Source of the DNA: a virus
Direction: 5' to 3' (one strand)
Length of the DNA: 17,381 nt
Virus genome (UHGV): UHGV-0315696
A program made the translations under genes and the position numbers. This document shows positions 7,315 through 15,334 of this stretch, in pieces. How positions within the stretch are numbered: the stretch's first letter is position 1; each line of letters starts with the position of its first letter. The notes beneath the pieces were generated by a model. It worked only from the letters and a program-made list of their open reading frames with translations, ran no database searches and was not told where the DNA came from.

Positions 7315-8076
7315 ATGACACAGTTTCAACTTGCATTAATCGCTAGAGAAGTTGATGGAGAAGTCATCCATCTTCGCACCAAAGACGGATACATCAATGC
7401 CACCGCGATGTGCAAGTCTGCGGGGAAGCTACTTGCTGACTATACACGACTAAAAACAACACAAGATTTTTTTGATGAATTATCACGCGATATGGGGATT
7501 CCCATATCGGAGTTAATTCAATCATTTAAAGGCGGAAGAGCAGAGAATCAAGGGACTTGGGTTCATCCAGACATCGCAATTAATTTAGCTCAGTGGCTAT
7601 CTCCAAAATTTGCAGTGCAAGTATCGAGATGGGTGCGTGAGTGGATGTCAGGTGAAAGAGCGCCTGCCGAACTCCCTATCCACCTTAAGCGGTATATGAC
7701 AAACCGAGGCAGAGTTCCTCATACGCACTTTTCTATGCTTAATGAACTGACGTTTAACTTGGTTGCGCCACTTGAACAGGCCGGATATACGCTGCCAGAA
7801 AAAATGGTCCCTGATATTTCAGAGGGTAGGGTTTTCTCGCAATGGCTCCGTGACAACCGGGGGGTTGAGCCGAAGACATTCCCAACATATAACCATGAGT
7901 ACCCAGATGGCCGGACATTCCCGGTACGTCTATACCCAAACGAATATCTTGCAGATTTCAAACAACACTTCAACGAAGTGTGGCTGCCTCAGTACGCTCC
8001 TAAATATTTTGCTGAACGAGACCAAAGGGCATTGACGTTGATTGAGAAAATCATGCTACCTGACCTTGATTCCTAA
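7315..8076 (+). CDS. KilA-N domain protein in the rexA/rexB slot; candidate repressor-linked exclusion/abortive-infection protein (BstA-like?)
   Basis: 253 aa with AGGA SD. The N-terminal region (...GYINATAMCKSAGKLLADY...WVHPDIAINLAQWLSPKFAVQVSRWVREW) resembles the KilA-N fold from memory. Co-oriented with cI, 31 bp downstream, followed by a strong terminator and then OL. Confidence 0.6.
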   Translation: MTQFQLALIAREVDGEVIHLRTKDGYINATAMCKSAGKLLADYTRLKTTQDFFDELSRDMGIPISELIQSFKGGRAENQGTWVHPDIAINLAQWLSPKFAVQVSRWVREWMSGERAPAELPIHLKRYMTNRGRVPHTHFSMLNELTFNLVAPLEQAGYTLPEKMVPDISEGRVFSQWLRDNRGVEPKTFPTYNHEYPDGRTFPVRLYPNEYLADFKQHFNEVWLPQYAPKYFAERDQRALTLIEKIMLPDLDS

Positions 8077-8264: not shown

Positions 8265-8327
8265 AACCATCTGCGGTGATAAATTATCTCTGGCGGTGTT
8301 GACATAAATACCACTGGCGGTGATACT
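8265..8327 (+). promoter_or_regulatory. Left operator OL3 (8265..8281), OL2 (8285..8301), OL1 (8309..8325) with pL (-35 TTGACA 8299..8304, -10 GATACT 8322..8327)
   Basis: ACATACAGATAACCATCTGCGGTGATAAATTATCTCTGGCGGTGTTGACATAAATACCACTGGCGGTGATACT is identical to lambda OL/pL as I recall it. Transcription is rightward on the + strand toward N. Confidence 0.9.
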
Positions 8328-8575: not shown

Positions 8576-8959
8576 ATGACACGCAGAACTCAGTTCAAAG
8601 GCAATTCACGTTCTCGTCGTCGTGAGCGTTTAAAGGCAAAGGCATTAGCTAACGGCGTGCTGGCCCGCGAAGAAGCAATAAGTTCAGAAGTATTACACCG
8701 CCCTACTCTAAGCAGAGCGCAGATTCAGGCTAAAGGTACTCACGAAACGCCTGAGCGCATAGAAGACGCTAAGCCAATTAAGTTCATGGCACAGGACGTG
8801 ATCTGGCAACAGAAAGAATACAGACGCAATCTGGAGCGAGCGGCCATTGTGTACGCGAATGAGTTTGGACATAAGCAACCAGAAACTGGTGTATGTCTTC
8901 CAAACGTAGCCATTTACGCGGCAGGCTACCGGAAATCCAAACAACTGACGGCGAGGTGA
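8576..8959 (+). CDS. N: N-like transcription antiterminator (P22 gp24-like; N-terminal arginine-rich motif)
   Basis: 127 aa with AGGAGG SD. ARM-like N-terminus (NSRSRRRERLKAKA). The C-terminus ...LPNVAIYAAGYRKSKQLTAR parallels my recollection of the P22 N C-terminus. First gene of the pL operon after a boxB. Confidence 0.65.
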   Translation: MTRRTQFKGNSRSRRRERLKAKALANGVLAREEAISSEVLHRPTLSRAQIQAKGTHETPERIEDAKPIKFMAQDVIWQQKEYRRNLERAAIVYANEFGHKQPETGVCLPNVAIYAAGYRKSKQLTAR

Positions 8960-8962
8960 TTG

Positions 8963-9676
8963 ATGACCACGCCTTCAGTTTTGCCGCAAAAATTATGGCG
9001 TCCGCTTGCAGAGATTAAAAACTTCGTTGAAAAAATGCCTGACGGCGTTCGCCTTACTGAGGTTACTAAAAAAGTTAAGACATTTGCCGAACTGTCAGGA
9101 AAGGAGAGAAACCAGCTCATCGATTTTATCGATAAACGGGAAAGCATCATTGTATTTAAGGTCAGAAAAGAAGGTTCTGGTAACGGAGTAACCTTTTTAC
9201 GCCACAAAAAATATGGATATCCCAAGCGGGAAGGAAACGTCACAATCATTAAGGACCTTCAATCAAAATTATGTACCAGATGCGGGCAGACAAAATCAGT
9301 CAATGATTTTTATTCAGATGCCAGCAAGCGTGACGGGAGAGCCATTTATTGCAAGAAGTGCGAATCTGCAATGAAACGCTCACGCAGAGAATGCAACAAA
9401 TTAATTCTGCAACAACAGGAACCTGAAGTGAATAACCTCAAAGCAGTTTCACCTTCACCAGAAATACTCAGAAAACAGGCTGAAGAATTGCTGAAAGCCG
9501 CCGAAATTGCGGAGAAAAAACGCCAGGAAGATGATGAATTCAACAAAAAACTTGCGCCCTTAAAACTTGAAATTCTTCAGGCCGCCGGAAAAATGCAGCT
9601 TAAACTGGACGAATTCATCGACTGTATGGATGAAATGAATAAAGCAGTTCAGAAGCTTAAAGAGCTGACCGCCTGA
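8963..9676 (+). CDS. Hypothetical early-left protein with a CxxC...CxxC zinc ribbon and a C-terminal coiled coil
   Basis: 237 aa with GAGG SD; the ATG at 8963 follows the N stop by 3 nt. CTRCG...CKKCE motif. No family recognised. Confidence 0.6.
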   Translation: MTTPSVLPQKLWRPLAEIKNFVEKMPDGVRLTEVTKKVKTFAELSGKERNQLIDFIDKRESIIVFKVRKEGSGNGVTFLRHKKYGYPKREGNVTIIKDLQSKLCTRCGQTKSVNDFYSDASKRDGRAIYCKKCESAMKRSRRECNKLILQQQEPEVNNLKAVSPSPEILRKQAEELLKAAEIAEKKRQEDDEFNKKLAPLKLEILQAAGKMQLKLDEFIDCMDEMNKAVQKLKELTA

Positions 9677-9707
9677 TATTAATAAATTGCAACTACCGGA
9701 GTTAACT

Positions 9708-10067
9708 ATGAACGAAACAGAACTGAAGCACATTATCGCCCTGCTTCTGGAAGATGCCAAACAGGTTTATCGACTTAGCCCAAATTCCGCAACGCTGACA
9801 CGCATCCAGATGGCAGAAAAAGCACTGAAACAGGATAATGAAAACAGCGCATCTGAAGTTGATGCTAATGGTGAAAATGAAGTAATAGAAATAAACAGCA
9901 ATATCAGCGACAGTTGCGTCGCTTACAGCCACCAAATAATTCGTGTAAGCGCAAGAATAATGGAATTGATGGCAAGTGAGCTTGAAAAGAACAACATCAA
10001 GCCCACTGATTGTTGTTTAAGAACCGTAATGAACGTTATTTATTACTCGATGTTCCGAAGTCGCTAA
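9708..10067 (+). CDS. Hypothetical early-left protein (119 aa)
   Basis: ATG at 9708 with GGAG SD (the track starts at 9687). No family recognised. The 3' end overlaps the convergent small ORF. Confidence 0.45.
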   Translation: MNETELKHIIALLLEDAKQVYRLSPNSATLTRIQMAEKALKQDNENSASEVDANGENEVIEINSNISDSCVAYSHQIIRVSARIMELMASELEKNNIKPTDCCLRTVMNVIYYSMFRSR

Positions 10068-10245
10068 CAGCGTCGAGTTTTTCATCAAAAAATGATTCAA
10101 ATACATCGTAAAATACGGCAATAGCACCGCCCTTATCTACCGCGGCAGGAACTGCCTTTTGAGGTATATCTTTCTCCCTGAATTGTGTGTTGTAGGTATC
10201 GACAGCCAGCCGCATCAGAAACATCACTTTTTCTTCTTGTGTCAT
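10036..10245 (-). CDS. Hypothetical small protein (69 aa) antisense to the pL operon
   Basis: Strong SD TAAGGAG 8-9 nt upstream of the ATG at 10245 on the - strand. Protein-like composition (MTQEEKVMFLMRLAVDTYNTQFREKDIPQ...). Confidence 0.45.
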   Translation of the reverse strand: MTQEEKVMFLMRLAVDTYNTQFREKDIPQKAVPAAVDKGGAIAVFYDVFESFFDEKLDAVSDFGTSSNK

Positions 10246-10465: not shown

Positions 10466-10525
10466 ATTGCTGTGTGTAGCCCTTGGCGGACATCGGTTTG
10501 CCGATTGCTGATGTCCGCCCTTTTT
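10466..10525 (+). ncRNA. DicF-like sRNA candidate ending in a strong rho-independent terminator (hairpin 10485..10519, T5 10521..10525)
   Basis: TTGGCGGACATCGGTTTGCCGATTGCTGATGTCCGCCCTTTTT has the same architecture as, and substantial identity with, the DicF 3' portion as I recall it (TTGGCGGTATCAG...CTGCCGCCCTTTTT). Sits in a 440-bp noncoding stretch within the pL operon, as dicF does in Qin. The 5' boundary is a guess. Confidence 0.45.
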
Positions 10526-10701
10526 AAAGTGAATTTTGTGATGCGGTGAATGCGGCTATGCGCACGCGGAACAGTTAAACCGACAGGATGTCACGGAAAG
10601 TCATCGTCCCCTGACCCGGCGTTAGTTGTTAACTGGTTAACGTCACCTGGAGGTACCAGGCACCGCATCAACAAAGTTCATTTGTGAAAATGGAGATAAT
10701 T

Positions 10702-10923
10702 ATGATTGCTCATCACTTCGGAACTGATGAAATACCACGTCAGTGCGTGACGCCTGGCGATTATGTTCTTCATGAAGGTCGGACATATATCGCTTCAGCA
10801 AACAATATTGAAAAGAGAAAACTCTATATTCGTAACTTCACAACAAAAACATGCATTACCGACTGCATGATTAAAGTTTTCATCGGGCGCGATGGCTTAC
10901 CCGTAAAAGCAGCGTCGTTGTGA
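10702..10923 (+). CDS. Hypothetical small protein (73 aa)
   Basis: ATG at 10702 with GGAG SD 6 nt upstream (the track starts further upstream at 10684). Not similar to DicB as recalled. Confidence 0.4.
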
Positions 10924-11500: not shown

Positions 11501-13573
11501 ATGAGCGCTGATAAACAGACTTTTGCACTACACTGCGAAGCAAAAAACGATAAAGTCAGAAAACGCCTTGGCATCAAAGGCGGTTTTTTCTGGACCGAGG
11601 CCAGAAAACTTTCTGTCGCAGTTTCCCGCTGCATTGCAGCCATGGACGATGCAGGCTACGACGAGGATGATTTCAAAAAACCCGTTCGCGTAAATTTCCC
11701 CGTCGTGAATGACCTTCCACCGGAAGGCGTGTTTGATACTGAATTCTGCAACCGCTATGAAAAAGGCGGGGAAGATGGCATCACCATGATGGCTATATCC
11801 TTCAATGACAACATCAACGGTGAAGATGCCACAACTGCTGGCGATGACAACGATGACCCGGACGGAACTATTCCGGATGATGTGGAGAAAAGCGAATCCC
11901 CGGACAGCGACGATGACTGTTCTGAGTGTGAAATTCCCGTCGCCACTCTGAGCCTTACTCATCGCTTCCTTCACCTCTTCTTCTTCAGCAAGGATGAAGA
12001 TGGAAAATACCGGCATCACGCCACACCAGAACAACGCAATAACGTGATCCGTATGGAGATGGACACAGAGGACAGTTACCTTCAGAGCCTGCTTACTGCT
12101 GTGCGCGCCGCACATCATGAACTGGATAAACTGACGAACTATCACCTTAGTCGCCTGGCTGAATCTGTAGGGAAAGCATTCCCCCACTCTGCAAATCATC
12201 GCATCAGCCCGGCTGAATTCGACAAGTTCATTTCCACCTGGATGAAAACTGACTACCTTGATCAGGGCCTGCTGACAAAAGAATGGCAGAACGGAAATTA
12301 TGTTTCAGGCATTACCCGTACGCCTTCCGGTGCTAACGCTGGCGGCGGAAATCTTACCGATCGTGGTGAAGGATTCAAACATGATAAGACATCACTCGCA
12401 CGAGATGTAGCCACCGGCGTTCTGGCCCGTTCAATGGATGTGGATATTTATAACCTGCACCCAGCACACGCAAAACGCGTTGAAGAAATCGTGTCAGAGA
12501 ATAAGCCGCCCTTTTCTGTTTTTCGCGACAAATTTATCGCCATGCCCGGTGGGCTGGATTATTCCCGCGCCATTGTGGTGGCTTCCGTGAAAGAAGCACC
12601 AATCGGCATTGAGGCCATCCCGGCACGCGTGACTGAATATCTCAACAAAGTGTTGACCGAAACCGATCACGCTAACCCGGATCCGGAAATCGTGGAAATT
12701 GCCTGCGGTCGCTCATCAGCACCGATGCCGCAGCGCGGAACAGCAGAAGGAAAACATGGCGATGAAGAAAAGCAACAAGCATCGGACACAATGGCTAATG
12801 AACAGGCAGCGCCTGAATCAGTGGAAGAAATTCCAGTTAAACATAATGAGGACACGCAATCACTGGAAAATGTCTCATCTGTAGAAACGAAATACCAGGA
12901 ACTGAGGGAGGAACTCAATAAAGCCAGGGAAAACATCCCCCCAAAAAATCCAGTCGATGCCGACAAATTACTGGCTGCCTCGCGTGGAGAATTCGTTGAA
13001 GGCATCAGTAACCCTGCTGATCCGAAGTGGGTGAAGGGGATCCAGACTCGCGACACTGAGGACCAGAATCAGTCCAAAGTGGAACAAATTGCCCCAGAAG
13101 CGGGACAAAACAGCCCGGATACGCAACAAAACGGGTCAGAAGAGCAACAGCCAGGGCCAGTAGCGCAACCGGAGCTGGAAAAAAACTGCCGCGTCTGTGG
13201 TCAGACTGGCGGGGGTAACTGCCCTGACTGTAGTGCGGTAATGGGCGATAGCACTTACACAGAAACTTTTGGAGAAAATGACGCCGCTGATGGAGAAGAC
13301 TCAGCACAAACTGAGGAGAAGATCATTCAGGAAAACTCTGTTGATGCCGCTCAGGAGGGCGAAACCGTTGTTCAGAACGAGCCAGGCAGTGATACGTCCG
13401 GCGATGACGCCAATTCTGAGCCAGTAACTCTCGACTGGAAAAGACAGCTCGTGATTGCCGCCGTCTATGGTTTGTGCGCCAACCCCGCATGTATAGCCAC
13501 AGCGCCAGCAATCCCTGATATCGCCATCATGATTGCCAACAGGCTTGAAAATTTCGGAGGTGATAAATCATGA
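11501..13573 (+). CDS. Large acidic hypothetical protein (690 aa) with Asp/Glu-rich low-complexity segments and a [15 protein letters not shown] zinc-ribbon-like motif
   Basis: Uninterrupted 2.07-kb ORF in the pL operon whose stop overlaps the gam start (ATGA). The minus-strand ORFs inside it are shadows. No family recognised. Confidence 0.7.
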
Positions 13574-13866
13574 ATGCCTGGCTTATCCCCGATCGCATTG
13601 AAGAGCAGTCATGGGCACGACACTACCAGCAAATTGCCCGTGAAGAAACTGAAGCTGAGCTGGCAGACGACCTGGAAAAAGGTCTGCCCCAACACCTGTT
13701 TGAATCGCTATGCATCGATAATCTGCAACGTCACGGGGCCAGCAAAAAAGCTATTTCCCGTGCATTTGATGACGATGTCGATTTTCAGGAACGCATGGCA
13801 GAACACATCCGCTACATGGCTGAAACCATCGCCCGTCACCAAATTAATATTGATTCAGAGGTATAA
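13570..13866 (+). CDS. gam: Gam, host RecBCD inhibitor (short GamS-length form)
   Basis: 98 aa ([60 protein letters not shown]...), near-identical to the C-terminal 98 aa of lambda Gam from memory. Confidence 0.9.
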
Positions 13867-13871
13867 AACGG

Positions 13872-14657
13872 ATGAGTACAGCACTCGCAACGCTGGCAGG
13901 GAAGCTGGCTGAACGTGTCGGCATGGATTCTGTCGACCCACAGGAACTAATCACCACTCTTCGCCAGACGGCATTTAAAGGTGATGCCAGCGATGCGCAA
14001 TTTATCGCATTGTTGATCGTCGCCAACCAGTACGGCCTTAATCCCTGGACGAAAGAAATTTACGCCTTCCCTGACAAGCAGAACGGCATCGTTCCGGTGG
14101 TTGGCGTTGATGGCTGGTCCCGCATTATCAATGAAAACCAGCAGTTTGATGGCATGGACTTTGAGCAGGACAATGAGTCCTGTACATGCCGGATTTACCG
14201 CAAAGATCGCAATCACCCGATCTGCGTTACCGAGTGGATGGATGAATGTCGCCGCGCACCATTCAAAACCCGCGAAGGCAGAGAAATCACCGGACCGTGG
14301 CAGTCGCATCCCAAACGGATGTTACGGCACAAAGCCATGATTCAGTGTGCTCGCCTGGCCTTCGGATTTGCTGGCATCTATGACAAGGATGAAGCCGAGC
14401 GTATTGTCGAAAATACTGCATATACTACAGAACGTCAGCCGGAACACGACATCACCCCGGTTAACGAAGAAACCATGTCGGAAATTAACGCCCTTCTTAC
14501 TTCCATGGAAAAAACGTGGGATGACGACCTGTTGCCGCTCTGTTCCCAGATTTTTCGCCGCAACATTTACACATCTTCAGAACTAACACAGGCTGAAGCT
14601 GTGAAGGTTCTTGGATTCCTGAAACAGAAAGTCACAGAGCAGAAGGTAGCAGCATGA
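13872..14657 (+). CDS. bet: Bet (Red-beta) single-strand annealing recombinase
   Basis: 261 aa, near-identical to lambda Bet from memory ([66 protein letters not shown]...). Confidence 0.95.
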
Positions 14658-15334
14658 CACCGGACATTATCCTGCAACGTACAGGGATCGACGTGAGAGC
14701 TGTCGAACAGGGGGATGATGCGTGGCACAAATTACGGCTCGGCGTCATCACCGCTTCAGAAGTTCACAACGTGATAGCAAAACCCCGCTCAGGAAAGAAA
14801 TGGCCTGACATGAAAATGTCCTACTTCCACACTCTGCTGGCTGAGGTCTGCACGGGTGTGGCCCCGGAAGTTAACGCCAAAGCCCTGGCATGGGGAAAAC
14901 AGTACGAGAACGACGCCAGAGCTCTGTTTGAGTTTACTTCCGGCGTGAATGTTACTGAATCCCCGATCATCTATCGTGACGAAAGTATGCGTACAGCCTG
15001 CTCTCCCGATGGTTTATGCAGTGACGGTAAAGGCCTTGAGCTGAAATGTCCGTTTACCTCCCGGGATTTCATGAAATTCCGGCTCGGTGGTTTCGAGGCA
15101 ATAAAATCAGCTTACATGGCCCAGGTGCAATTCAGCATGTGGGCGACGCGAAAAGATGCCTGGTACTTTGCCAACTATGACCCACGTATGAAGCGTGAAG
15201 GCCTGCATTATGTCGTGGTCGAGCGGGATGAAAAATACATGGCTGGTTTTGACGAAATGGTGCCAGAGTTCATCGAAAAAATGGACGAGGCACTGGCTGA
15301 AATTGGTTTTGTATTTGGGGAGCAATGGCGATAG
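14654..15334 (+). CDS. exo: Exo (Red-alpha) 5'-3' exonuclease
   Basis: 226 aa matching lambda Exo from memory ([65 protein letters not shown]...). ATGA overlap with bet, as in lambda. Confidence 0.95.

Follow-up and report, generated by a model that had tools for sequence, protein, structure and literature searches.

The interval that follows the antiterminator gene N is a classic mosaic slot of lambdoid phages, and to our knowledge its occupants outside lambda are mostly unstudied. Here we ask what the two genes that fill this slot in Escherichia phage PhiR5_2 encode, and what they might do early in infection. The whole stretch of DNA that we analysed (17,381 nucleotides; hereafter the window) corresponds to the early region of PhiR5_2, as a 17.4-kb match to the phage record (PV340546.1) in reverse complement and with 100% identity.

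A first-pass annotation of the window had noted two unrecognised genes right after N, and its coordinates proved exact in the phage record. Gene 1 (8963-9676, plus strand) encodes a basic protein of 237 amino acids (aa; pI 9.5), and gene 2 (9708-10067, plus strand) an acidic protein of 119 aa (pI 5.2). The record lists them as XSB41355.1 and XSB41354.1, respectively, each as a "hypothetical protein". Both open reading frames are true genes. Gene 1 has homologues in 67 clusters and matches phrog_2539 over its full length (residues 3-237, E = 8.4e-130), and gene 2 matches phrog_2982 (E = 3e-76). The sequences are already public as hypothetical proteins or PHROGs of unknown function; no paper in our literature search mentions the accessions of either protein, and papers on phage POCJ13 do not discuss genes 1 and 2. 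The pair are uncharacterised accessory genes of a lambdoid early operon.

Genes 1 and 2 lie directly downstream of N

On the plus strand of the window, the order is cI, a KilA-N/BstA-like gene, pL, N, gene 1 and gene 2. The N gene (8576-8959, plus strand) is of the 933W type (Pfam N_peptide, E = 2e-15) and is named "antitermination protein N" in the PhiR5_2 record, with gene 1 directly 3' of it. Our promoter scan placed pL at 8299-8327 on the plus strand (TTGACA-17-GATACT, 10/12 matches). The flanks of pL, like cI, are immunity-region DNA with 95-97% identity to HK97 and lambda. We presume that pL is the promoter of N, gene 1 and gene 2.

The junction between N and gene 1 is exceedingly tight. 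Gene 1 starts 3 nt past the stop codon of N, and its Shine-Dalgarno sequence, GAGGTGA, includes that stop codon, such that the last codons of N are part of the ribosome-binding site of gene 1 (8957-8965). The same pattern (GCG AGG TAA/TGA, then 2-4 nt, then ATG) is kept in homologous loci with other N alleles, where we found it six times. Genes 1 and 2 are spaced 31 nt apart. Both would share a transcript with N, to which gene 1 is probably also coupled in translation.

Our terminator scan detected no plus-strand terminator between 8890 and 10470. Downstream of pL, the first intrinsic terminator that we could recognise is a DicF-like hairpin with a U tract at 10471-10530 (plus strand), which consists of a 13-bp GC-rich stem followed by CUUUUU (-26.4 kcal/mol, z = -3.6). 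It scores 29.5 bits against Rfam DicF (E = 0.001), below the gathering score of 48, and the homologous stretch is annotated as DicF in phage Tritos. N, gene 1 and gene 2 are all upstream of this terminator and would thus be made before antitermination is needed. Genes 1 and 2 are therefore probably made as early as N, with Rho-dependent termination between N and gene 1 being possible.

An exchangeable module with a patchy distribution

We compiled 94 related loci, drawn from genomes, metagenomes and IMG/VR. Gene 1 homologues fall into two main positional groups. Members of the first group are proteins of 195-249 aa encoded 2-11 nt 3' of N, next to at least six N alleles. Those of the second group (171-173 aa) are encoded in the nin region, in the order antirepressor-like gene (mostly KilA-N), homologue, DUF968, upstream of Q. 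Homologues in Providencia and Morganella are found elsewhere in the early-left operon, not beside N. Among 5,426 complete E. coli genomes, 81 carry the N-adjacent group and 84 the nin-region group (about 1.5% each). Among isolated phages, the N-adjacent form occurs in only five distinct ones (PhiR5_2, phiSTEC1589-Stx1c, POCJ13, 75/02 Stx and, as a partial match, another). Carriers of gene 1 include O104:H4 and Shiga-toxin phages of Shigella.

Comparison with phage 933W defines the edge of the module. The 933W N is 99.4% identical to that of PhiR5_2, yet homology between the two ends at window position 8962, with the gene 1 start codon beginning at the very next base. In the interval where PhiR5_2 has genes 1 and 2, 933W has L0079, Ea10-ssb, cIII and a lambda-type kil, whose sequences are unrelated to either gene. 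Unlike 933W, PhiR5_2 has a Rac-type kil and a RecE-family module, and no cIII homologue was recognisable between N and gam. More than 100 phages have the 933W-type N (99.4% identity) without gene 1. Since the same N occurs in 933W and in these relatives lacking gene 1, the pair appears to be exchangeable and not a cofactor of N. By comparison of sequences, genes 1 and 2 head an alternative, exchangeable left-arm module. This agrees with the first-pass annotation, which had assigned them to the slot where lambda has ral and sieB: within the pL operon they come first after N, and they are swappable with respect to 933W. We propose that they would form a non-essential accessory cassette at the head of that operon. 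The stop codon of N is also an exact mosaic breakpoint relative to 933W-type phages.

In other genera, the gene that follows the gene 1 homologue varies. In an Intestinirhabdus locus (L014, 5662-6816), we observed a 384-aa protein with (ANLxG)-type repeats, which resemble a pentapeptide repeat by eye. In an Enterobacter locus (L011, 5635-6861), the next gene after the homologue encodes a 408-aa protein of unknown family.

Gene 1 combines a winged helix, a zinc ribbon and a long helix

The AlphaFold model of gene 1 is confident (pLDDT 86) and comprises a winged helix (residues ~8-90), an inserted C4 zinc ribbon with a helix (~93-151), a disordered linker (153-160) and a conserved C-terminal coiled-coil helix (166-236). 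The winged-helix fold is supported both by the order of its elements in the model (H1-H2-H3-beta-beta) and by structural matches to solved winged helices. Its wing carries the motif LRHKKYG, almost invariant among homologues, and the only histidine of the protein (H81). The C4 motif is formed by Cys104/107 and Cys130/133 (CxxC-(22)-CxxC). The C-terminal helix is predicted as a single long helix of 70 residues (pLDDT about 90) with continuous a/d heptads, in which 15 of 20-21 positions are hydrophobic or Ala in the best register. By this heptad pattern, residues 166-236 qualify as a coiled coil in what is a single-chain model. The domains also differ in charge, with a pI of 10.0 for the winged helix, 9.6 for the ribbon and 5.5 for the C-terminal domain.

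The first-pass annotation had described gene 1 as a protein with a zinc ribbon and a long coiled coil. Both are present; the ribbon, however, is not a feature of the family. It is an insert found in 14 of the 37 aligned homologues and absent from the other 23. Homologues that bear it are ~237-252 aa long, and forms without it are ~195-200 aa. Note that four ribbon-bearing homologues carry the precomputed Pfam label PF27269.

Searches for relatives of known function were negative. The Pfam scan (E <= 0.1) returned no Ral, SieB, HTH, PadR or MarR match for either protein, and no significant Pfam family was found above threshold. This bears out the earlier remark that neither protein resembles lambda early-left genes. 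We likewise obtained no match for gene 1 or gene 2 in NCBIfam or among PADLOC models (E <= 0.01), and nothing below E = 0.05 in single-sequence and profile searches of PDB sequences, whether with the whole family or with the winged helix alone. None of these searches clearly tied gene 1 or gene 2 to a characterised protein with an unrelated function. Both proteins lack a membrane segment: the maximum 19-residue Kyte-Doolittle values (0.55 for gene 1, 0.71 for gene 2) are well under the transmembrane level.

What gene 1 does resemble is restricted to parts of the protein. Its ribbon (residues 104-133) matches EndoVII and HNH PHROGs (E = 1e-8 to 1e-10) and superposes on HNH N-terminal ribbons in BFVD. 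The CxxC-(22)-CxxC ribbon is like the Stc1-like N-terminal ribbon of HNH/endonuclease VII nucleases, but the matches are confined to it, and gene 1 lacks an HNH or beta-beta-alpha-Me catalytic motif. We therefore rejected the idea that gene 1 is a nuclease. In overall architecture, gene 1 can be likened to PadR-type and other small winged-helix regulators with an added ribbon. Unlike these regulators, it has no sequence match to Pfam PadR, to other HTH families or to PDB sequences. Its C-terminal helix is far longer and is more conserved than its winged helix, and its family instead has zinc ribbon, AlpA or AP2-like modules inserted or fused.

Variable modules are joined to one conserved helical domain

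The gene 1 family is a compact prophage family. A word-indexed search recovered the 67 clusters of homologues (33-98% identity), all from Enterobacterales and all unnamed, and only 106 relatives emerged when 1.84 billion representatives were searched exhaustively with an HMM. Gene 1 also matches phrog_2565 through its C-terminal domain (E = 3.7e-19), and its remote homologues likewise fall in PHROGs 2539 and 2565, which are labelled function unknown. The family core is the N-terminal domain plus the C-terminal helix, with the helix being the most conserved part. Invariant residues are mostly helical (P166, E167, R170, A173, E174, L176 and A180, and further E184, L202, E203, Q206, D216 and D220).

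Around this core, the domain content is highly variable. An AlpA HTH is fused to it in three homologues. Five proteins of 400-560 aa have three tandem winged helices (two extra), and another (P0153) has a second ribbon. One homologue (P0147) has an AP2-like domain at a Pfam E of 9e-4, which is under the cut-off, and the same region matches HNH-endonuclease PHROGs. At the other extreme, three proteins of ~80 aa are stand-alone C-terminal domains. Among the 20 relatives that we scanned (long and C-terminal-only forms), no Pfam family scored above its curated cut-off except the AlpA HTH in one of the three fusions (P0094). The main basis of our mechanistic reading is this apparent addition of variable, putatively DNA-binding modules to one conserved helical domain.

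Gene 2 travels with the module downstream

Gene 2 is predicted to form four helices, with a disordered acidic linker at residues 43-66 (net charge -7), in a model of low confidence (pLDDT 69, pTM 0.37). Even with a profile search included, its homologues are confined to E. coli and Shigella. The N-terminal 45 residues are a conserved, nearly invariant module, which is also found by itself (44 aa) or joined to another C-terminal part (220 aa).

Next to the 237-aa form of gene 1 in E. coli, gene 2 always follows. Outside E. coli, gene 1 homologues have no gene 2 and have other neighbours downstream. Where gene 1 is truncated or missing, gene 2 is kept with its own downstream module. An obligate gene 1-gene 2 pair of the toxin-antitoxin type was therefore rejected, because each gene is found without the other.

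The module 3' of gene 2 comprises a convergent 69-aa gene, the DicF-like element, kil, a 128-aa protein and a RecE-family protein. The 69-aa gene (10036-10245, minus strand; phrog_2605, E = 7e-45) has a strong AAGGAG ribosome-binding site, shares 32 nt with the 3' end of gene 2 and marks the boundary of the cassette. The phage record lacks it, although RefSeq genomes list it as WP_000189938. It is also found much more broadly than either gene of the pair: members of its cluster were observed on more than 1,000 contigs. The Rac-type kil (10702-10923, plus strand) has an STnc100-like leader directly upstream (10522-10716, plus strand; 28 bits, below the gathering score). The layout of DicF-like hairpin and kil presumably parallels dicF-dicB of the Qin prophage.

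What the two proteins might do

We tentatively favour, at somewhat less than even probability, a reading in which gene 1 encodes a soluble, non-catalytic, oligomeric early protein that binds nucleic acid, and gene 2 is independent, lineage-specific cargo. The winged helix of gene 1 would contact DNA. In the PhiR5_2 allele, the inserted C4 ribbon would aid this contact, as an accessory similar to that in phage HNH/EndoVII nucleases. The C-terminal coiled-coil helix, which is the signature of the family, would oligomerise the protein and may also touch a conserved partner. The resulting DNA-bound dimer or oligomer could modulate an early DNA or transcription transaction. Gene 2 would be a small, acidic and helical protein in its own right, carried along with the Rac-type kil module on its 3' side. 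Note that the architecture of gene 1, which points to nucleic-acid binding, suits anti-defence, regulation or DNA metabolism equally well.

A more specific proposal, which we consider doubtful, gives the leading part to the C-terminal domain. Gene 1 would then stand for an unrecognised class of early phage effectors, with this conserved helical domain of ~75 residues, which also exists on its own as a protein, as the effector. Exchangeable modules (between one and three winged helices, up to two zinc ribbons, an AlpA HTH or an AP2-like domain) would hold the domain on DNA, where it would capture or block a conserved DNA-associated factor of the host or of a rival phage. It would amount to DNA-anchored counter-defence or host takeover, run from the pL or pR operon of lambdoid phages.

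More generally, one or both proteins might disable an immune system of the host or of a prophage at an early stage of infection, which we judge unlikely but less so than the tethered effector. Gene 1 could hide phage DNA by coating or masking it, or its conserved C-terminal domain could obstruct a defence that targets DNA, and gene 2 could be a small acidic inhibitor, as its size and the charge of its linker would allow. The first-pass annotation had taken its idea of anti-defence or exclusion from position only. The position is indeed suggestive: directly behind N, the pair fills the leading slot of a mosaic accessory region that contains ral in other lambdoid phages, and expression before the first terminator suits a function that is needed immediately. 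The patchy distribution among E. coli genomes and isolated phages points the same way, as does the variability of the downstream gene in other genera, once with pentapeptide-like repeats. The only anti-restriction hint in the protein itself is a match of the gene 1 ribbon to the "Lar-like restriction alleviation" phrog_5558 (E = 2.6e-8; residues 99-161 on profile positions 6-67 of 130). However, this match covers only the optional ribbon, and the same residues fit EndoVII and HNH PHROGs no less well. Lambda Ral and Rac Lar, like SieB, share the position just downstream of N in the mosaic accessory region of the early-left operon. Gene 1, though, has three to four times the size of Ral and no match to Pfam Ral, and neither gene 1 nor gene 2 has a match to the SieB family or a membrane segment. 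In one locus (L005), precomputed Pfam annotation identifies a Ral homologue downstream of the gene 1 homologue, so gene 1 is not a replacement for Ral. PADLOC models were also silent. Furthermore, gene 1 homologues retain 40-60% identity across genera, occupy fixed positions and include a sister group in the nin region. Such conservation and fixed positions make an accessory function intrinsic to the phage look likelier than a fast-evolving inhibitor. Silas et al. treated the ral region as an accessory region, and genes 1 and 2 are not among the 200 accessory genes tested in their functional screen. We considered orf184 of that study as a possible relative and rejected it, as it is an unrelated 107-aa protein.

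Two further readings are much less probable. Superinfection exclusion or prophage-encoded defence, in which a lysogen would express the genes against incoming phages in the manner of SieB or Rex, strikes us as improbable. It is consistent with the BstA-like Abi gene in the rex slot and with the convergent 69-aa gene just downstream, which may be a lysogen-expressed moron. Gene 1 is also intact in an O104:H4 prophage whose N is flagged as partial by RefSeq, and the PhiR collection reportedly stems from a 2025 study of prophage defence systems by Brenes and Laub. Both genes, however, are within the cI-repressed pL transcript, and promoter-like sites in our scan were no commoner than in shuffled sequence (4 found versus 5.4 expected). 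The lack of membrane segments and of PADLOC matches also argues against exclusion, and homologues in the nin and recombination regions likewise belong to lytic operons. Slightly less probable again is that gene 1 is an RNA-binding cofactor of N antitermination, or acts on the fate of early mRNA, with its winged helix on a nut-like or other RNA hairpin. The spacing of 2-11 nt between the N stop and the gene 1 start, with a shared ribosome-binding site and across at least six N alleles, would fit such a role. We nevertheless dropped it as a lead idea because the same N occurs without gene 1 in more than 100 phages, and because many homologues are encoded away from N, namely those of Providencia and Morganella as well as all of the nin-region group. 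The fused AlpA HTH, the AP2-like domain and the HNH-type ribbons are, moreover, modules of DNA-binding types. The probability left after the four readings (DNA-associated early protein, counter-defence, exclusion and N cofactor) falls to other or no detectable function.

Returning to the DNA-associated early protein, our analysis turns an anonymous pair of open reading frames into a defined target, in which gene 1 represents a compact family with variable, putatively DNA-binding modules and one conserved coiled-coil domain. PhiR5_2 is a cultivable phage with lambda immunity that plates on MG1655, which makes the locus experimentally tractable. If the C-terminal domain binds a host factor, gene 1 would represent a new early mechanism of host takeover or counter-defence. 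Should gene 1 prove to be no more than a minor regulator, the result would be routine.

Other features of the PhiR5_2 window

The KilA-N/BstA-like gene (7315-8076, plus strand) encodes a BstA-like abortive-infection protein of 253 aa in the rex slot, between cI and pL, with matches to Pfam KilA-N (E = 8e-27), phrog_6287 "BstA" (E = 1.8e-82) and PADLOC BstA (E = 2.5e-20). The DNA that flanks it is 95-97% identical to the immunity regions of HK97, mEp234 and lambda, in which the same slot holds gp48/49, hicAB or rexAB.

At the other end of the window, Rfam identified a C4 antisense RNA (609-693, minus strand; 74 bits) near an antirepressor gene and, beside this RNA, the Hfq-binding small RNA isrK (719-796, minus strand; 75 bits). 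Their presence suggests that PhiR5_2 has a C4-controlled antirepressor module similar to that of P1/P7. A HigB/HigA toxin-antitoxin pair (~976-1504, plus strand) is annotated in the phage record to the right of the replication genes. Downstream of kil, an exonuclease VIII-like RecE-family protein of 690 aa is encoded immediately upstream of gam-bet-exo (together 11501-15334, plus strand). The complete gam-bet-exo and the RecE-family protein place two lineages of recombination exonuclease in one operon.
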